DNA of 64,000 bases from a virus: IMG/VR virus record IMGVR_UViG_3300031552_000002, positions 1 through 64,000 of that record; one strand, written 5' to 3'. This document shows positions 4,632 through 45,575 of this stretch, piece by piece (the stretch's first letter is position 1; every line of letters starts with the position of its first letter). The notes under the pieces are model-generated. The model was not told where the DNA came from, made no database searches, and saw only the letters and a list, made by a program, of their open reading frames with translations. A program made the position numbers and the translations under genes.

Positions 4632-4916
4632 GTGGGAACCGCAGAACGGCAGCTACGCTCCGACCAGATCAAGGCCGGTCTCGCCCGGAGACGAGCAGCA
4701 GGAGCCATCCTCGGAAGGCCAAGGGCCATCTCCGATACGGCCCTGGACCTGATCCTGGGACAGACCGCGGCCGGGGTCTCACCCTGGAGAATCGCCCGGA
4801 CACTGAACGAAACCGGAGTCCCCACCATCCGGGGCGGGGCTGCCTGGTCGCCGTCCACGATCCGGGGTGTTCTCTGCTCCAGCTACGTCCGGCGTCTCAC
4901 CCAGAGACAGCGCTAG
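4632..4916 (+). CDS. truncated serine recombinase (E-helix plus DNA-binding domain, no catalytic domain)
   Basis: ERQLRSDQIKAGLARRRAAGAILGRP and IARTLNETGVPTIRGGAAWSPSTI; start uncertain. Confidence 0.6.
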   Translation: MGTAERQLRSDQIKAGLARRRAAGAILGRPRAISDTALDLILGQTAAGVSPWRIARTLNETGVPTIRGGAAWSPSTIRGVLCSSYVRRLTQRQR

Positions 4917-16542: not shown

Positions 16543-17045
16543 AGGTGGGGCGGGATGGTCCCAGCCCTCGGGATGATGTCGCCAATGTCGTCCCGGATGA
16601 TGTCCCCCCCGTCACCCTCACCGGGCCTCTCGTGCGCCGACCCGGCGGCGAGTCCGCGCAGTGCCGATGACACGTCCGTCATCCTGTCCCGTAGCGGGTC
16701 GATGTCTTCATTCCGGACTCGGAACGTCTTCACTCCGGACCCGTCTGTCAGCTCGGTGCTGATCGTCGCGCCGCCACAGAATCCGCTGTCGAAATCGATG
16801 GCGACGAGCTTCGAGCGGAATCGCTGCCGGTCCTCGTCGGGAGAGAACCCGTCGTTACCGAACTCGGGGTCGTCGACGAATCCCTCAGGTTCGAGTTCGA
16901 CCCAGCTGCGAGGATGCTGGGTCAGGGCTGCGCGCAGGGCGTCCCGGTAGGTGTTGTGGAGCCCTGGGGTGCGCCAGTCGGCGTCCCCGGCAATGATCCA
17001 CGTCCCGGTCTCATCGGATTCGGTGGCGTGTGGTCCAACAATCAT
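16536..17045 (-). CDS. hypothetical protein, paralogue of the N-terminal half of 27310..28419
   Basis: GP.AT..IA.DADW..PG.HN.YR.AL..ALT.H and IP..GT.P.HLS. Confidence 0.7.
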   Translation of the reverse strand: MIVGPHATESDETGTWIIAGDADWRTPGLHNTYRDALRAALTQHPRSWVELEPEGFVDDPEFGNDGFSPDEDRQRFRSKLVAIDFDSGFCGGATISTELTDGSGVKTFRVRNEDIDPLRDRMTDVSSALRGLAAGSAHERPGEGDGGDIIRDDIGDIIPRAGTIPPHLS

Positions 17046-17086
17046 GGTGTCCTCCGCGTCATCGTCGTCATCGTCCCGACGTCCAC

Positions 17087-17115
17087 ATACTGTCACGTGC
17101 GGCTGTCATTGTCAA
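17087..17115 (-). promoter_or_regulatory. repeated promoter
   Basis: TTGACA-N14-TGA-CAGTAT. Confidence 0.75.
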
Positions 17116-17136
17116 TGCGGAATACACGCCCCCACG

Positions 17137-17667
17137 TCATCCCTGCGAGCACGGCCCCAGCCGCTCACCGTCGAGAGTCGTCACACCTTCCCCCAGGTGC
17201 GCATCGCGGCTGATCTGACTTCCATGCGAGAGGATCACGTTCCGCTCGACGTCCGAACCGGAGCCGACGAATGATCCACTACCGATGAGGGCGTTCCTCC
17301 CTATCGTGACCCTTTCTCCGATCTGGACGGCGATCCCGACGACAACGGCGTCATGGATATGCGTCGCGTCTCCGACTCGGAGCCCATGCCCGAGGTCCGT
17401 GTGGCCACCATCGATGACGACGTCATCACCGATCTCGGAGCCGATCCCGAGGCTCGCGCCGATGCGCGACCTTGCCCCGATCTTCACCCCGAACCCGATC
17501 TTGACGTCATCCTCGATCTTGGTGTCTTCCCCGACGTCAGATCCAGCGAAGATCACCGCACGCCTGCCCACCTCGACCCCGGGGCCGATCTTTACCCAAG
17601 GGCCTACGGTGGCCGTCTCGTCGATAGTGGCCGTCTCGTTGATGGTGGCCGTCTTGTCGATGCCCAT
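17137..17667 (-). CDS. left-handed beta-helix (hexapeptide repeat) protein
   Basis: [IV]Gxxxx repeats over the whole length; AAGGAGG RBS. Confidence 0.85.
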   Translation of the reverse strand: MGIDKTATINETATIDETATVGPWVKIGPGVEVGRRAVIFAGSDVGEDTKIEDDVKIGFGVKIGARSRIGASLGIGSEIGDDVVIDGGHTDLGHGLRVGDATHIHDAVVVGIAVQIGERVTIGRNALIGSGSFVGSGSDVERNVILSHGSQISRDAHLGEGVTTLDGERLGPCSQG

Positions 17668-17765
17668 TGACTTCCTCCTTGTCAGAATCCGTTGTCTCCG
17701 CGGTCCCGCCGGTCCGTCTACCCGTCGCTGGCGGCCGCAGGCGACGAATGACGACGTGCTCGTGC

Positions 17766-18697
17766 TCAGGGAGAGCAGAGCTCGGGATCGGCGGCTCTCC
17801 GACGCTGCCTGAGGGCCGCCTTGACGTAGTCCGGCACCGGCACGCCCTTGCCGGCGCACTCCGGGCAGCAGATGACACGGTGGGTCGGGTGGTCAGGGCA
17901 CATCGCCTGAGGACCGGGAGCCGGGTGGGCCGCTGTGTGCCGATCTGACGGCCTCAAATCGCGAAGCCATGCCACCACAGCACCACCGTGGCACGAACCC
18001 CAGGACCGGGAACCTACGGCGGCGGAAATGGTCCCTGGGGTCCACCCGTCGGCTATCAGCCGCTCACACTCCCGGATGATGACTCCCCGGTTCAGGGACC
18101 GGCCCACGTCACCGACACCCTCGACAACCGCCTCAGCGAGGAGGGCAGTGGTTCCCCTGTGCCCGGCCTCAGTCGGGTTCTGGGTTGCGGGGTTTCCCGT
18201 TGATCCTTCCACCACCACCGTTGCCTCGTCTTGGGGTGCGGTGGGGCCGGTGGGCTGGGGGGCTTGGGGGGTGGATGGTTCTACGGATGGTTCTAAGGAT
18301 GGTTCGGGGGATGCTGGCATCCTCCCCCCCCCGGATGCTGGCATCCTCCCCCCCCGGATGCTGGCATCCCCCCCTGTTCAGGTGTCCGATGCTGCGACGT
18401 CCCATCGCAGCCGGCCGGACACCGGACGAGGATTTCATACCGGTTCGGACGCTCATGCTCAGCGGTCCGGCGAGTCCCGCCATCGCCCAGGTGAGTCCGG
18501 ATCTCGCCGGCAGTCTCCAGGCGGCGCAGGGCCGCGCGGACGTTCCGGGGATCGACGTTCGCGTACTTGGCCAGCGTCGCGATGGTCGGCCAGGACCCGC
18601 CGTCGCCGTCGTGGTTGGCGATCCCGAGGAGGACGACCTTGTCGGTGCCTCTGGACCGTGAGTGGTGCAGGACGATCGCCAGTGCCTCGACGCTCAT
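17766..18697 (-). CDS. wHTH replication initiator-like protein, split by a 1-nt frameshift in a G tract (ORFs 18293..18697 and 17766..18344)
   Basis: KVVLLGIANH..SWPTIATLA..VRAALRRLE HTH; EPSLEPSVEP linker; one extra G at 18348-55 joins the frames. Confidence 0.7.
18309..18374. repeat. three palindromic iteron-like repeats GGATGC-TG-GCATCC with C tracts
   Basis: Starts 18309, 18333, 18356; C9, C8 and C7 runs. Confidence 0.85.
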
Positions 18698-18783
18698 GCC
18701 GGGCCTCTCCGCCCGGTCTCAGCATCCGACCGGACCGGGAGTGTGCCTCGACCGATCCGGGATGCGCGGGTACTATGGTTCAT
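18694..18783 (-). CDS. 29-aa leader peptide coupled to the initiator gene
   Basis: GGAG RBS; MNHSTRAS..RRGPA*; ATGA overlap with ATG 18697. Confidence 0.5.
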   Translation of the reverse strand: MNHSTRASRIGRGTLPVRSDAETGRRGPA

Positions 18784-18845
18784 GTCAGCTCCGATCTGAC
18801 CATGGCCCGGATCCCCTACCAGGGATGCCGGGCCTCCACTTTTTG
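18782..18845 (+). ncRNA. putative antisense (counter-transcribed) RNA 1
   Basis: TCGACC-N17-TACTAT at 18748-76; hairpin GTCAG/CTGAC with CTCCGAT loop; second hairpin plus T run; homologous to 45323..45390. Confidence 0.6.
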
Positions 18846-19051
18846 TCTTGTGCTGTAACCATACTCTGTGGTCTCGTTCGCTGGCCGCAAGGAACGGCAT
18901 CGAATATCTACAGCTCAGGTCGGGGTCACCTATCACCCCAGGTCCTCGATCTTCACCTGCCCCGACCCGTTGGACAAGGACAAGATCCTCCGTGCGATCG
19001 CTGGCATCGATCCTGCGGCGGTGATCACCGCCTGACACCAGCAACGCACGC

Positions 19052-19090
19052 AGGGAGCCCCCGATCTCGCTATGAGATCAGGGGCTCCCT
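19052..19090. terminator. hairpin
   Basis: AGGGAGCCCC.GATCTC / GAGATC.GGGGCTCCCT. Confidence 0.55.
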
Positions 19091-19098
19091 ACGTCTTG

Positions 19099-19356
19099 TC
19101 AGATCTTCGTCCGGCGCTTCCGGGGTTGAGTCTTCCTATCGTCGAGGCCCCACCAGCCGCACCCCGGCCGTGATCTCCGCCAGGCCAGTACGTCTGAACG
19201 CCGGTACAGGTACCGGTGCAGATCAGGGGACCATGTCCTCGGGCACGGCGTGCACGCGGCAGTGTCCCGGAGGGCTGCCCGCGTGAAAACCGGGCGCGTC
19301 ATCCTGAGAAGATCCGCCGCCTGCTGCGAGGTCAGCCAAACATCATCACCGGTCAT
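19099..19356 (-). CDS. Xis-like HTH protein
   Basis: WLTSQQAADLL..YLYRRSDVLAW. Confidence 0.65.
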   Translation of the reverse strand: MTGDDVWLTSQQAADLLRMTRPVFTRAALRDTAACTPCPRTWSPDLHRYLYRRSDVLAWRRSRPGCGWWGLDDRKTQPRKRRTKI

Positions 19357-19568
19357 GGTGTCATCGTCTCGTTCCATGTCTCGTTCCATTCCTTCACCTC
19401 CTCCCACCGGTAACGGAGTTCACAGCCGACCCGGACAGACGGCAGCGGCCTTACCGTCCTGTTGGCCCACCGCCAGACGGTGACTGGTGAGACCCCGAGG
19501 GCGCGTGCTACTGCTCCGACCCTCAAAAGGTCACCCCCCGCGTCAGCGGGGGGTCTGGTTGCTCCCAT
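19353..19568 (-). CDS. excisionase/MerR-like HTH protein
   Basis: LLRVGAVARALGVSPVTVWRW..LPSVRVG.ELRYRWEEV. Confidence 0.75.
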   Translation of the reverse strand: MGATRPPADAGGDLLRVGAVARALGVSPVTVWRWANRTVRPLPSVRVGCELRYRWEEVKEWNETWNETMTP

Positions 19569-19677
19569 CGGGGGTTCTCCTTCCTCGCCGAGTCTCCCAC
19601 GTCCACGCAACGCTTGCAATACTTGCAATACTTGTGACATGGTGAGTGTCACACGGGCACGACACGAAAGGGCAGAA

Positions 19678-20007
19678 ATGACAGTGCAACTAGAGCGCCT
19701 CGTAACAGAGGCCACAACGGCGGCCGTCGCCGTGTACGCCCTACGAACGGGAGACGTGGCCGCTACCTGGGGAGCCCTCGGCGCGTCCGGTGCCCTCGTT
19801 CTCTGGGCCGACGCCGACGGCCTCCCCGGACGGTCCCTCACGACCGTCCTCCTGATGATCGTCTTCGTGGGGGTTGCCCTGGACCTTCAGGGGATCTCGC
19901 CCCTCGGAGGCCCCATCACCTGGGCCCTCGCGGCCCTCGCCCTCGCGACCTGCGCGTCCTGGCTGCGGGCCACGAGACGCACAGGACGCAGGGAGGAGGC
20001 CCAGTGA
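19678..20007 (+). CDS. membrane protein
   Basis: Several hydrophobic segments. Confidence 0.55.
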   Translation: MTVQLERLVTEATTAAVAVYALRTGDVAATWGALGASGALVLWADADGLPGRSLTTVLLMIVFVGVALDLQGISPLGGPITWALAALALATCASWLRATRRTGRREEAQ

Positions 20008-20231
20008 GCTGGGCCAGGTATGACCTGGTCCTGCGAATGAAGGACCACAGGCCATCCCGGACCCGTGTCGGATCGGGTCGGCTCGACGAGAAGGACGCGA
20101 AGGCCCTCGCAGCTGCCTTCGAGTCGATGCTCCACCCGGGCGACAACCCGGCCGAGTGGAAACTCGAAGTCCGCAAGCAGGACGCGAAGTACGCGGGTAA
20201 CGGGACCGTCGTCGCCCGGTACGAGGGCTGA
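20004..20231 (+). CDS. hypothetical protein
   Basis: GGAGGAGG RBS; GTGA overlap. Confidence 0.6.
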   Translation: MSWARYDLVLRMKDHRPSRTRVGSGRLDEKDAKALAAAFESMLHPGDNPAEWKLEVRKQDAKYAGNGTVVARYEG

Positions 20232-20234
20232 GCA

Positions 20235-20420
20235 GTGGCCTACCGGCAGAAGACAGCCGCCGACCGAGAGCTGAACGAGGCTCTCCGACGGCTCAGGGCC
20301 ACAGCGGTCGGGCTCGACAGGCTCGACGGGACCACAGAACCCGGTGACTGTCTCCGCCGTGAGGCAGCGGCCCTCATCAAGGGTCTGGTGAAGGCCAGAC
20401 TCCGCGGGACCGGGACCTGA
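20235..20420 (+). CDS. hypothetical protein
   Basis: Short ORF in the operon. Confidence 0.45.
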   Translation: MAYRQKTAADRELNEALRRLRATAVGLDRLDGTTEPGDCLRREAAALIKGLVKARLRGTGT

Positions 20421-20540
20421 ACGGAAAACGGAAACGGAAAACCTACGGAACGTTTTTCGGGGCCAAGGTACGTAGGCGTGTACGTGCGCGTGCACGCACG
20501 CGTGTACAAGGCCCGCCGACTGATGTCAATGAAGGGAGGA

Positions 20541-21110
20541 ATGATGAGCGGTGCAGCAGCGGACGGCGCGGCCATCACGGCAGCAGTAGTGATGATCGTG
20601 ATCGTCTTTGGCCTTGATTCTCTCAAGGTCAAAATCAGGCTGGTCGATAAGTACCAGCTTGACAAGATTCTCGGTCTGATCCTGATGGTCGCTGCGGGGG
20701 CAACACTCGCGATGACGCCTGTGATGGGCGTTTTCGTGTGGGCGGTGGGGATCGTCGAAGGAATGGCCGGTTTCGCGGTCGGCGCCATTTTCGGCGCGTT
20801 GAACTCCGTAGCCGGGTCGCTGTCGCCGGGGGCGCCAAAATTCCCGACATCGGACGGGTTCAACGCGAGCGCCGGTCATGGCCTGGTCGTGGCAGGGGCC
20901 TCGCTGCTCCTGCTGCGCCTGGCCTGTGGTGCCCTGCCTAAGGTGTCGGAGCGCCGCCTGGCGTGGAGTGACGTGCACCTGGCGGTGCTGGTGCCCCTGT
21001 TGTTGACGGTGTGTCTGTCGTCGCTGGGGCAGGCGCTTGAGGGCCCGGTGCAGTGGGCCCACGGCACTGTTGGCGGCTGGTTCGAGCAGCAGATCACGGA
21101 GGTGCCGTGA
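20541..21110 (+). CDS. multi-pass membrane protein (Spd-like by context)
   Basis: GGAGGA RBS; 4-5 hydrophobic segments. Confidence 0.6.
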   Translation: MMSGAAADGAAITAAVVMIVIVFGLDSLKVKIRLVDKYQLDKILGLILMVAAGATLAMTPVMGVFVWAVGIVEGMAGFAVGAIFGALNSVAGSLSPGAPKFPTSDGFNASAGHGLVVAGASLLLLRLACGALPKVSERRLAWSDVHLAVLVPLLLTVCLSSLGQALEGPVQWAHGTVGGWFEQQITEVP

Positions 21111-32989: not shown

Positions 32990-33414
32990 TGCCGGGGGAA
33001 TTCGCGGCAGTGTTCGTGGCCCTGTGGGTCGGGCACCAGGTTGGCGACCACTGGGCCCAGACCGGTCCTCAAGTGATGAAGAAAGGGCTACCGGGGTGGG
33101 TCGGGCGGTTGGCGTGCAGCAGGCACGTCCTGTCTCTGACGCTGGTGAAGGGTGTCGCGCTGGTCGCGGTCTCCGTTGCCACTGGGTGGCGTCCTGGCCT
33201 GGTGGGGCTGGTGGCTGGTCTGAGCATCGACGCCGTATCCCACTGGTGGGCTGACCGGCGCAGCACGCTGCGGTGGCTGGCCGCTGTCATGGGTAAGGGG
33301 CGGTTCTCCAGGCTGGGGGACCCTATCGCTGCCCCGTGCGGTACTGGGGCCTATGCCCTTGACCAGAGCTGGCACGGATTGTGGATGTTCCTGGCAGCCC
33401 TCATCATCAGCTAG
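32989..33414 (+). CDS. DUF3307-like membrane protein
   Basis: HQVGDHWAQ, SHWWADRR, DQSWH. Confidence 0.75.
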   Translation: MPGEFAAVFVALWVGHQVGDHWAQTGPQVMKKGLPGWVGRLACSRHVLSLTLVKGVALVAVSVATGWRPGLVGLVAGLSIDAVSHWWADRRSTLRWLAAVMGKGRFSRLGDPIAAPCGTGAYALDQSWHGLWMFLAALIIS

Positions 33415-33485
33415 CTGTCGCCCGCGGCCGTACTCGACAGGTCCGCGCCTGGCCCCAGGGTGGGGCCTGCACGGTGCAACAGGAG

Positions 33486-34914: not shown

Positions 34915-36276
34915 TCACCCCTCCGCCATGTCAACGAACCTCGAATAGTGCCCCTGGAACGCCACCGTCACCGTGTCCGTCGGCCCGTTCCGGTGCTTCG
35001 CCACGATCAGGTCCGCCTCCCCCGCCCGGGGGCTCTCCCGGTCGTAGGCATCCTCCCGGTGCAACAGGATCACCAGGTCAGCGTCCTGCTCGATAGCCCC
35101 CGACTCGCGGAGATCCGACAGCAACGGACGACGATCCGCCCGCTGCTCCGGACCCCGATTCAGCTGGCTCAACGCCACGACGGGTACCCCTAACTCTTTC
35201 GCGAGGAGCTTCAGAGTCCGAGAGAACTCGGAGACCTCCTGCTGCCGGCTCTCCACCCGGCGCCCTGACGTCATGAGCTGGAGATAGTCCACGATGATCA
35301 GCTTCAGGTCGTTCCGTTGCTTGAGCCTGCGGCATTTCGCGCGGATCTCTGGGAGCGACATGTTCGGGCTGTCGTCGATGAACAGTGGCGCGTCCTGGAG
35401 TTCAGCGATTTTTTCGGCGATCCGTATCCAGTCAGAATCCTCGACGGCCCCGGTACGAAGCTTCTGGAGCCCGACGCGGGCCTGCGCGGAGAGAAAACGC
35501 ATGGTGACTTCCTGGGCGCTCATCTCCAGTGAGAACAGCACCGTGGTGAGCTTCGACATGGCGGCCGAGCGTGCGAAGTCGAGGGCGAGGGTCGATTTTC
35601 CGATTGCGGGACGGGCCGCGATCACGACCAGTTGCCCGGGGTGTAGCCCGTGGGTGAGCCGGTCAAGATCCGCAAATCCTGTCGGTATGCCCTGCATCGT
35701 CATATTATGGCATCCTGCCGCCTCGACGATGTCGATGACCTCCTCGACGAGCATCCCGAGGGGCCGACAGTCCGATGCCTGGTTGCGGGCCCCGGTGGCA
35801 TCGTCAAGGGCAGCGTGGGCTGCCGTGACCGCTTCCTCAGCAGTCTCGGACGCTGCCCCGGACCGTCGGTGCCCGATCTGGAGGATCCGCGTCCCCGCCA
35901 TGGTGAGAGCCCGGAGGGTTGCCGCCGTCCGGACGGCCTCGGCGTAGGACCGTGCCCCCGCCGTCGAGGGGACCTCAGCGATCAGCGTGTGGAGGTACGC
36001 CGGGCCGCCGATCTGGGTGATCTGCCCGGCGTTGACGAGCCGTGACGCCACGGTCACGGGGTCTGCTGGTTCGCCGGCCCCGTACAGGTCCAGAACCGTG
36101 TCATAGATGATCTCGTGTGCAGGGCGGTAAAAATCGTGTCCCCTAAGGACCTCAACGACGTCCGCGATGGCGTCCTTGGACAGCAGCATTGCTCCGAGGA
36201 CAGAGCGTTCCGCAGGGTCGTCCTGGGGCGGGGTAGGGGTGTTGGTGTCGTCATAGGTGTCTGTCAGCTCAGTCAA
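34915..36276 (-). CDS. dnaB: replicative DNA helicase
   Basis: AARPAIGKS, IIVDYLQLM, LSQLNR, DLRESGAIEQDAD, KHRNGPT. Confidence 0.97.
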   Translation of the reverse strand: MTELTDTYDDTNTPTPPQDDPAERSVLGAMLLSKDAIADVVEVLRGHDFYRPAHEIIYDTVLDLYGAGEPADPVTVASRLVNAGQITQIGGPAYLHTLIAEVPSTAGARSYAEAVRTAATLRALTMAGTRILQIGHRRSGAASETAEEAVTAAHAALDDATGARNQASDCRPLGMLVEEVIDIVEAAGCHNMTMQGIPTGFADLDRLTHGLHPGQLVVIAARPAIGKSTLALDFARSAAMSKLTTVLFSLEMSAQEVTMRFLSAQARVGLQKLRTGAVEDSDWIRIAEKIAELQDAPLFIDDSPNMSLPEIRAKCRRLKQRNDLKLIIVDYLQLMTSGRRVESRQQEVSEFSRTLKLLAKELGVPVVALSQLNRGPEQRADRRPLLSDLRESGAIEQDADLVILLHREDAYDRESPRAGEADLIVAKHRNGPTDTVTVAFQGHYSRFVDMAEG

Positions 36277-44424: not shown

Positions 44425-45324
44425 TCACGCTGCTACCGTTGCCGCGCATTGGCCTCGGAGAAGGTCTCGGATCCTCGCAGCCCCAGCGCTGGGAGCAGGG
44501 GCCTGCTCCGGTATCACCTGCTGCGCTACGGGAATAGTGCCCGCGTACCGGGGGTGGCAGTGGCAGCGTCTCATGCGGCCGTATCCGTCCTCGACGAAAC
44601 CGTGGTCACAGGACCCGCACCACTCCCGGCGGGGAACAGGAAGACGGCACGGGGTGACCTCGCCGAGCCGGTGGAGGAGGACAGCCCGGGGGCTCCGGGC
44701 CCCGTCGAGGGCCCCGCTAAGGGTCTCCTCGGCGGCCCGAAAACCACGCAGGGCGTTCCCGGCGCCGAGGCCACGAAGGATCGGCAGGAGCTCGTCCTCC
44801 TGGACTGGCAGGGACATCCTGGCGAGTCGGCGTCGGACGTCCAGCTCGTCAGGGTCTTCCTCCTGGCGTTCAGTGGGCGCGGGCCCGGCGTGAGGCCAGA
44901 CGACAGCGGGAGGCCCCGGGCGCAGAACCTCGACCGGGCGCCGGACTGCTGTGGGTTCCTCTACGAGCGCGGGGTTCTCGTGGGGCTCCTGGGATGCGTC
45001 CTCGACGTGTTCGGCTGTCTCCGTGGCTCCTGCGGACGGCGCGTAGGTCGTCAGCGTGTACGTGCACCCGACGATCCCGCCGTTCCGGTGCCGCTGCACC
45101 GACGTGACCAGCCCCGAGGCCCTGAGGGCAACCAGGGCCGCCTTGACGGGGCGGAGCGTGAGGCCAGCGCGTTCGGCAATCGCGTGCTGTGAGGGCCAGC
45201 AGGTGCCGTTGCTGTCGGCGAAGGACTCAAGCGCCAGGTACACGCGAACCTCAGCGCCGGTCTTGGTGAGTTCGAGGGCCCGTGCCGCTCTGAGGCGCGG
45301 TCCCGGGCAGGTACACTGTTCCAT
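44425..45324 (-). CDS. wHTH replication initiator-like protein 2
   Basis: VYLAL..FAD..CWPSQ..IAERAGL..V..AL..L; C-terminal WCGSC..RC.CHP; AGGAG RBS. Confidence 0.7.
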   Translation of the reverse strand: MEQCTCPGPRLRAARALELTKTGAEVRVYLALESFADSNGTCWPSQHAIAERAGLTLRPVKAALVALRASGLVTSVQRHRNGGIVGCTYTLTTYAPSAGATETAEHVEDASQEPHENPALVEEPTAVRRPVEVLRPGPPAVVWPHAGPAPTERQEEDPDELDVRRRLARMSLPVQEDELLPILRGLGAGNALRGFRAAEETLSGALDGARSPRAVLLHRLGEVTPCRLPVPRREWCGSCDHGFVEDGYGRMRRCHCHPRYAGTIPVAQQVIPEQAPAPSAGAARIRDLLRGQCAATVAA

Positions 45325-45390
45325 GTCAGCTCCTATCAAGCTGGCCACGGCCCGGACCCCCTCCGCAGGGGTGCCGGGCCTTCTTCTGTC
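45323..45390 (+). ncRNA. putative antisense RNA 2
   Basis: TACACT at 45312-17; hairpins GTCAGCT/AGCTGGC and GGCCCGGACCCC/GGGGT.CCGGGCC then a T-rich tail; covaries with 18782..18845. Confidence 0.6.
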
Positions 45391-45516
45391 GTTGTGGTCC
45401 TGAAGCTATCACCTGCCGCCGCTGTTCCCGTGGAGCACCTCGCCGAGGCCGAGGCTGGGGGGTAGGGGGGTTCTTTCCTTGAAAACCTTCTTTGGAAACC
45501 TTCTGTAGGCTCCACA

Positions 45517-45575
45517 GAGCACTAGGTAGTGCTCCGTGGAGCACTAGGTGGTGCTGGTGGGAGCACCAGGTAGGA
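45517..45575. repeat. three 22-bp-period iteron-like repeats
   Basis: GAGCAC(T/C)AGGT at 45517, 45539, 45561; the first contains palindrome AGCACTA-GG-TAGTGCT. Confidence 0.8.

Follow-up and report, generated by a model that had tools for sequence, protein, structure and literature searches.

Background

The locus described here lies in a tailed-phage genome, the 75.8-kb virus record IMGVR_UViG_3300031552_000002 of IMG/VR, whose first 64 kb (64,000 nucleotides, about 65% G+C) we call the window. This record carries twice, on the same strand (18762-18854 and 45303-45400), a conserved cassette of about 95 bp over the ribosome-binding site (RBS) and start codon of two initiator-like genes, and the cassette looks like the gene of an antisense RNA of about 65 nt. 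Two of the closest described systems belong to plasmids. In R1 (IncFII) the antisense RNA CopA, made of two stem-loops and transcribed from a promoter inside the rep leader, blocks a leader open reading frame (ORF), tap, which is coupled to repA (PMC5717011). pMV158 stands for the countertranscripts that cover the rep RBS directly: its short antisense RNAII, largely a terminator hairpin of its own, pairs with the region where translation of the initiator begins and blocks this gene directly (PMC5717011).

The first copy of our cassette resembles the CopA-tap-repA arrangement in that its antisense element lies over the RBS of a leader overlapping an initiator gene as ATGA. It has however no sequence or Rfam relationship with CopA (cmscan of 17000-21000); the initiator is a phage O-like protein with a winged helix-turn-helix (wHTH; HTH_36) and not an IncFII RepA, the element is a tailed phage and not a plasmid replicon, and no CopB-like partner was identified. 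Moreover, copy 2 and most of the relatives are leaderless, the predicted antisense -10 lies in the first five codons, and endonuclease genes are headed by the cassette as well. The geometry of copy 2 is rather that of RNAII. This geometry, a predicted antisense RNA over Shine-Dalgarno sequence and start codon with its own putative terminator hairpin, is found in eight of the twelve members of the family described below, copy 2 included, the U-tract being weak in several. Unlike our phage, pMV158 is a rolling-circle plasmid of Firmicutes, of unrelated sequence, and the RNA predicted here would cover the whole 5' untranslated region (UTR) as far as the sense promoter.

Facing promoters with an antisense RNA of about 65-70 nt over the 5' end and start codon of the mRNA are also found in IS10 (RNA-OUT/RNA-IN), phage P22 sar and hok/sok-mok, where the products of the mRNA are potentially harmful (a transposase, an antirepressor and a toxin, respectively). 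The block acts via the coupled leader ORF mok in hok/sok, and the antisense promoter lies inside the coding start in IS10. The sequences and hosts of these systems are unrelated to ours, and none of them is a portable cassette common to actinophage initiator and homing-endonuclease genes.

In actinophages, the nearest precedent is given by the SAS and ESAS elements of cluster K mycobacteriophages: ESAS are imperfect inverted repeats with a short spacer, immediately upstream of a conserved sequence containing a Shine-Dalgarno motif, at a subset of non-structural genes (PMC3203893), and the function of both elements is still open (PMC3203893; PMC12699233). The SAS have a 13-bp consensus, GGGATAGGAGCCC, 3-8 bp before start codons, in 11-19 copies per genome. 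Our cassette shares with them the layout of inverted repeats, Shine-Dalgarno motif and gene start. It differs by its number (one or two copies per genome), by its conservation, which reaches codons 3-5 in the form of a predicted antisense -10, and by a fold which favours the antisense strand; the SAS consensus had no match in the window at up to 2 mismatches. We found no description, in Rfam or in the literature consulted, of translation control by antisense RNA in actinobacteriophages.

Two copies of one cassette

The features of both copies are collected in Table 1. The original prediction, made on copy 1 from the letters of the window, had proposed an antisense RNA with a leader peptide over initiator gene 1. 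Its building blocks are all present in the sequence: the promoter-like TCGACC-N17-TACTAT (18748-18776), both hairpins and the T run (TTTTT at 18840-18844 on the plus strand, starting 5 nt after the stem). As it had proposed, the loop CTCCGAT of hairpin 1 is complementary to the minus-strand GGAG at 18792-18789, which stands 5 nt ahead of the ATG of a 29-aa minus-strand ORF as its RBS, and the stop codon of this ORF overlaps the ATG of the wHTH gene (18697-18695) as ATGA.

Within the genome, copy 1 matches 45307-45381 (E = 2e-11). Over roughly 75 nt, the non-coding blocks of the two copies agree at about 80% of their positions, and the initiators behind them have 28% protein identity over 60 residues. 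The similarity breaks off abruptly at both ends, at G-TAC... and at the foot of hairpin 2. For the predicted plus-strand RNA the folding energy is -30.4 kcal/mol in copy 1 (z = -3.3; none of 200 shuffles was equally stable) and -35.1 kcal/mol in copy 2 (z = -3.4). In copy 2 there is no leader, the ATG of the cassette being that of initiator 2 itself; two homologues of this initiator, the 90% identical P0002 and the protein of element L091, have the same start position.

Table 1. Elements of the two cassettes and of their genes, and coupled leaders in the family
Feature	Coordinates	Strand	Basis and remarks
Copy 1
-35-like TCGACC	18748-18753	+	sequence; weak; 17-nt spacer to -10
Predicted antisense -10 TACTAT, preceded by G18770	18771-18776	+	within leader codons 3-5
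Hairpin 1, GTCAG / CTCCGAT / CTGAC	18784-18800	+	fold; 7-nt loop is the anti-Shine-Dalgarno
Hairpin 2, GGCCCGGATCCC / GGGAT-G-CCGGGCC, G18827 bulged	18804-18834	+	GC-rich stem of 7 + 5 bp; fold; predicted terminator
T-rich tail TCCACTTTTTGTCTT	18835-18849	+	9 T in 15 nt against a background of ~2.6
Leader ORF, 29 codons (MNHST...GPA)	18694-18783	-	ATG 18783, TGA 18696-18694; sequence and ORF reading
Interrupted helix around initiator-1 start codon	18690-18725	-	sense minimum-free-energy (MFE) fold; GGAGAG (18710-18705) in loop
wHTH replication-initiator-like gene 1, 134-aa ORF	18293-18697	-	HTH_36 E = 3e-9; phrog_8540 E = 1.4e-29
Candidate sense -10 TATGGT	18858-18863	-	23 nt upstream of hairpin 2 on the mRNA strand
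Copy 2
Predicted antisense -10 TACACT, preceded by G45311	45312-45317	+	within codons 3-5 of initiator 2
Hairpin 1, GTCAGCT / CCTATCA / AGCTGGC	45325-45345	+	fold; U:G wobble on plus strand
Hairpin 2, G45373 bulged	45349-45380	+	T:A of copy 1 becomes C:G
T-rich tail TTCTTCTGTCGTTGT	45381-45395	+	9 T in 15 nt
wHTH replication-initiator-like gene 2, 299 aa	44425-45324	-	HTH_36 E = 2.4e-8; phrog_391 E = 2e-10
Candidate sense -10 TAGCTT, preceded by TGA	45403-45408	-	22 nt upstream of hairpin 2
Coupled leaders
Copy 1			29 codons, ATGA
L011			22 codons, ATGA
L052			21 codons, ATGA
L107			14 codons, TGATG, ahead of phrog_2447 'replication initiation protein'

A small family of related elements

Relatives were sought by DNA pattern scans of viral, metagenome and genome collections and then, as the original prediction had suggested, with covariance models (R1 and R2, run on the retrieved records). 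This yielded a family of 12 elements, one or two per genome, from 10 viral or metagenomic records. They share a plan on the strand opposite the gene: G-TANNNT comes first, then 7 nt and a hairpin whose 7-nt loop is complementary to the Shine-Dalgarno region, then a GC hairpin containing a bulged G, and last a T-rich tail. Besides the two window copies the family includes L004, L106/L107 and L091, the last of these an orthologue of initiator 2. Two further members, L101 and L113, come from one and the same provirus, and another, L105, shares its record with the weaker L114. Members with lower scores are L011, L052 and L072, which are homologues of initiator 1 with a non-coding region upstream. 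One more locus, L017, is not scored by the model; ahead of its initiator, read in antisense, it shows TATTGT with two hairpins and a T-run.

Other candidates were discarded. The pattern matches L003, L005-L010, L092-L097, L099, L100 and L102-L104 were judged to be chance combinations of an RBS and a GC hairpin; the distant Gordonia-phage homologues of the L107 initiator lie in tight operons and gave no model match; and a search for exact 17-mers of the copy-1 and L052 sub-types brought up chance matches only, none of them scored by the model.

Against all Rfam families, cmscan of 17000-21000 at E <= 1 gave only four unrelated chance-level matches and no family for the cassette. A BLAST search with copy 2 against 50,697 cultured-phage records gave one chance-level match only, and a homology search for initiator 2 in viral contigs gave none. 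The cassette is, judging by its sequence, a member of a small family so far undescribed.

Covariation of the hairpins and the favoured strand

The pair statistics come from a model-based alignment (A4) of the 12 sequences, with 19 base pairs. Pairing is standard in 98.2% of the cells, and compensatory changes on both sides are seen at 14 of the 19 pairs. The covariation score is 0.616, against 0.209 in shuffled alignments (which never reached the observed value in 500 trials) and at most 0.10 with slid partners. Helix 1 is paired in all 12 sequences, with compensatory change at four of its seven pairs; in hairpin 2 such change affects 10 of 12 pairs, and the bulged G of the 3' arm is kept in 11 members. 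The loop of hairpin 1 has 7 nt in 10 of the 12 members and varies in sequence. In copy 1 the stem of hairpin 1 is re-paired after a 4-nt deletion, and in L113 two adjacent pairs are swapped.

The two strands do not behave alike. A G:U pair on the antisense strand, which is an A.C mismatch on the mRNA, occurs in 18 cells, and the reverse (A.C on the antisense strand) in one. In independent MFE folds the antisense strand is the more stable in 8 of 12 members, the sums being -366.8 and -346.8 kcal/mol.

This asymmetry bears on an alternative already offered by the original prediction, that the structure acts in cis on the sense mRNA; in the form considered here it acts in this way only, and no antisense RNA is made. 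A promoter-proximal GC hairpin would then stabilise or gate the 5' end, and the second hairpin would partly sequester the Shine-Dalgarno sequence beside the start codon, the whole being a translational operator or stabiliser comparable to ESAS/SAS. Such a role would suit several facts: in both window copies the sense strand folds at least as well as the antisense strand, the 3' half of GGAG is paired in hairpin 1 of the mRNA and the ATG directly adjoins this hairpin, a candidate sense -10 precedes hairpin 2 in most members (see below), no antisense promoter or terminator is called by a generic scan, and inverted repeats with a Shine-Dalgarno-containing motif at gene starts have an actinophage precedent (PMC3203893; PMC12699233). 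It is weakened by the G:U pairs, which are 18:1 in favour of the antisense strand, and it leaves unexplained both the G-TANNNT kept within or beyond the coding start whatever the codons and the T-rich run which follows the hairpin on the antisense strand only. We consider an action in cis alone to be unlikely.

A conserved promoter-like signal inside the first codons

In 11 of the 12 members a TANNNT hexamer precedes hairpin 1 by 7 nt (6 in L072), and the twelfth, L107, has CATACT (VANNNT). In 10 members a G stands directly before the motif. In nine members a start codon abuts hairpin 1, so that TANNNT falls in sense codons 3-5. Eight of these nine have the form xAx at codon 3, xxT at codon 4 and ACN at codon 5, with all four third bases used in the last; the exception is again L107 (VSSMH). 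The N-termini of the eight read MNHST, MEQCT, MTNGT, MSDDT (twice), MPDRT, MEDVT and VPDRT: residue 3 varies between H, Q, N and D, and residue 4 between S, C, G, D, R and V. A fixed third base beneath varying amino acids is the signature of a signal at the nucleotide level. L052, L072 and L011 lack a start codon next to hairpin 1, and the position of TANNNT is unchanged in them.

In Mycobacterium smegmatis, 79% of the mapped promoters have ANNNT at -6 to -13, and SigA prefers TANNNT, VANNNT being weaker and a strong -35 not reported (PMC6448022). The spacing of 6-7 nt between our hexamer and hairpin 1, seen in 11 of 12 members, agrees with this SigA preference, the start site itself being only predicted. 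A start 6-8 nt past the hexamer would put the 5' end of the RNA at the foot of hairpin 1 and give it a length of about 60-68 nt. Of the plus-strand promoter originally proposed for copy 1, the -10 is conserved at a fixed distance, and the -35-like TCGACC is found in no relative.

The predicted 3' end and a candidate facing promoter

The 15 nt which follow hairpin 2 hold 2-10 T across the family against a background of about 2.6, and are above background in 11 of 12 members; L107, L101 and L011 have a clean U-run directly after the stem. A scan of 18200-19500 for canonical intrinsic terminators (at least 5 T in 8, 0-2 nt after a GC stem) found none.

On the sense strand, a TANNNT stands 13-27 nt upstream of hairpin 2 in 10 of the 12 members. 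We would be dealing with two predicted promoters facing each other some 85-95 bp apart, with the antisense terminator placed just short of the sense -10. Beside these motifs we observed short inverted repeats flanking each cassette, TACTATGGTT / AACCATACTC at copy 1 (18771-18780 with 18857-18866) and GGCAGGT / ACCTGCC at copy 2 (45308-45314 with 45412-45418). Each arm holds or adjoins one of the facing -10-like motifs, and the repeats could reflect similar promoters or a long-range helix.

Facing promoters raise the question of an element which works on DNA or transcription, with no need of RNA-RNA pairing. The promoters would interfere with one another, as in the convergent-promoter switches of temperate phages, or the repeats would be a protein-binding or single-strand-origin structure. 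The TANNNT motifs facing each other on both strands would be accounted for, as would the distance of only about 130 bp between copy 2 and three 22-bp iteron-like repeats (45509-45574); G:T pairs are tolerated in single-stranded DNA hairpins too. On the other hand, stems which covary freely under a constant loop length and a constant bulge suit an RNA fold better than a sequence-specific protein site, the cassette is also found in glycosyltransferase operons and ahead of HNH genes, far from iterons, and promoter interference alone needs no hairpin 1 over the RBS. An element of this kind seems to us quite improbable.

A predicted antisense RNA over the translation start

Our preferred reading is that both cassettes are small genes, each encoding in cis an antisense RNA of about 60-68 nt which would block translation; we give this a probability of roughly 0.6. 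The transcript, supported by the conserved -10-like motif and the terminator-like hairpin, remains a prediction. The antisense RNA gene of the original prediction is reinforced by the fixed distance of its -10, the covariation of its hairpins, the G:U pairs on the antisense side and the T-rich tail.

What the sequences show is the anatomy of the cassette, its conservation, its covariation and the asymmetry of its strands; the course of transcription, pairing, translational block and coupling given next is inferred. A constitutive antisense RNA would start from a -10-only G-TANNNT promoter of actinobacterial type, lying within codons 3-5 of the first sense ORF, with its 5' end at hairpin 1 or 1-2 nt earlier; termination would occur at hairpin 2, with its GC stem, bulge and U-rich tail, just before the facing sense -10. 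Such an RNA would be fully complementary to the sense 5' UTR, Shine-Dalgarno sequence and start codon. Pairing would begin at the loops, the 7-nt antisense loop kissing the complementary loop of the mRNA; the duplex formed from there would keep ribosomes from binding and probably make the mRNA accessible to RNase III. The start blocked in this manner would be initiator 2's own in copy 2 and that of the 29-codon leader in copy 1, where translation of the leader would otherwise open the helix at the initiator-1 start and hand ribosomes over at the ATGA. The two copies probably act independently, cross-talk being unlikely because their loops differ.

Several points weigh against an antisense RNA. 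No -35 is conserved in the relatives, TCGACC having no counterpart in them or in copy 2, and a generic scan for sigma-70 promoters and terminators calls nothing in 18200-19500. L004, L091 and L114 have a weak U-tract or none, and the T run of copy 1 does not adjoin its stem. Both window copies fold slightly better on the sense strand. The family is small, its 12 sequences representing about 7-8 independent lineages, and three distant members were partly chosen by a model containing the TANNNT columns. Finally, a single inherited pair accounts for nine of the 18 G:U cells, and the alignment behind the pair statistics had itself been fitted to the model.

Leaders with predicted coupling and the genes behind the cassette

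Short ORFs which run from the start codon of the cassette and end over the start of the next gene are found in copy 1, L011, L052 and L107 (Table 1), so the coupled leader described for copy 1 by the original prediction has counterparts in three relatives; L072 has none. The leader peptides are unrelated past their first residues, and the copy-1 leader has no codon-position G+C bias (0.63/0.70/0.63). Because of this, it would be the predicted translation of the leader, and not the peptide, that matters. Many homologues of initiator 1 have a real upstream gene ending in the same ATGA, which is why we suppose that this gene family commonly relies on coupling. In copy 1 one can also notice a 7-codon mini-ORF, MVRSELT (18783-18806, minus strand), whose ATG lies in the CCATGG between hairpins 1 and 2 and whose TGA overlaps the leader ATG as ATGA; the equivalent site of copy 2 is an in-frame GTG (45348).

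The genes headed by the cassette are initiator-like in 7 of 12 cases and endonuclease-like in 4, the type of the remaining one being not clear. The endonuclease-like targets are HNH_3 (L105), HNH-type (L101 and L113) and MUG113/T5orf172 (L004). Both HNH cassettes of provirus G002 lie among glycosyltransferase-like genes, and a second relative, G010, is also classed as a provirus. In the phage genome itself, searches for tyrosine integrase, ParA and ParB gave no match, and the serine-recombinase match was weak. The plasmid-style copy-number control put forward by the original prediction is not supported by these observations: HNH and T5orf172 genes stand behind the same cassette, copy 2 is leaderless, no partition genes were found and two relatives are classed as integrated proviruses. 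We would therefore see in the cassette a general device for genes needing low expression, and not specifically a plasmid-type copy-number controller, because it also heads endonuclease genes, no ParA/ParB was found and relatives occur in proviruses. A dose-dependent restraint of initiators is a plausible use of it.

The same gene contexts speak to the possibility that a plus-strand RNA is made for another job, as a primer or activator RNA of an origin or as a trans-acting small RNA, its overlap with the RBS being incidental. RNA-based prophage replication origins do exist in mycobacteriophages (PMC7157519), and the predicted transcript of copy 2 points toward the iteron-like repeats. No iterons lie downstream of copy 1, however, relatives carry the cassette beside endonuclease genes, and the sole invariant geometry is the cover of the Shine-Dalgarno sequence and start of the first ORF. 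We regard such a job as very improbable.

If the antisense RNA is real, it tells in what way initiator and endonuclease genes are held silent or dose-limited in these phages, it gives a clear case of a promoter encoded in the first codons of several unrelated genes, and it makes available for Actinobacteria a set of compact repression modules which are possibly orthogonal. The cassette is portable: in relatives it heads initiator-like and free-standing endonuclease genes, whose products can be harmful at the wrong time or level. One may go further, on a more doubtful footing, and imagine a "silencer plug-in" of about 95 bp with its own sense promoter, RBS, start codon and an antisense gene whose promoter lies in the first five codons; it would move by recombination between the homing-endonuclease and initiator genes of actinophages, and its divergent loops would make orthogonal dosage-sensing brakes. 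This extension is speculative; were it true, it could suggest a function for the ESAS-type repeats of mycobacteriophages.

Neighboring genes and other observations

The PHROG profile matched by initiator 1, phrog_8540, is annotated 'replication initiation O-like'. The frame of this initiator closes after 134 codons, within GGATGC..GCATCC repeats, and the reading goes on in a different frame as a 192-codon ORF (17766-18344, minus strand). Because only positions 1-119 of the 196-position profile are covered and the ORF continues in the other frame, this break (17766-18697, minus strand) points to a frameshift, to a slippery tract or to an error of sequencing.

On the plus strand, an ORF of 55 codons (18868-19035) has a coding-like G+C content at third codon positions (0.75-0.83), its conserved part being about 18925-19035. 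A match (75% identity) exists only between its last ~37 residues and the C-terminus of P0005, a metagenomic protein of 92 aa. As the match is confined to this end, we take the ORF for the truncated remnant of a plus-strand gene and rejected it as the true target of the plus-strand promoter. The remnant in turn implies a putative recombination joint near 18900-18925, where the cassette and initiator 1 would have come in. Further on, a strong hairpin (GGGAGCCCC..GATCTC / GAGATC..GGGGCTCCC, 19045-19085) lies directly downstream of a minus-strand HTH_17 gene (19099-19407); it is probably the terminator of that gene, separating it from the transcription unit of initiator 1.

The sole integration-type signal found in the record is a weak match to the serine-recombinase 'Recombinase' domain at 4752-4880 on the plus strand (24.4 bits). 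In the complete provirus G002, the two cassettes lie 2.3 kb apart, at 33383-33478 (L113) and 35751-35847, each heading an HNH-type gene; the gene after L113 appears split into ORFs of 83 and 106 codons.

Finally we must note the sequences on the far side of copy 2. Three tandem 22-nt direct repeats (GCTCC..GAGCACTAGGT.GT), which also form inverted repeats, occupy 45509-45574, and a further CCGTGGAGCAC is found at 45428-45438. Placed just upstream of the sense promoter region of copy 2, the tandem repeats look like iterons or operators for initiator 2.

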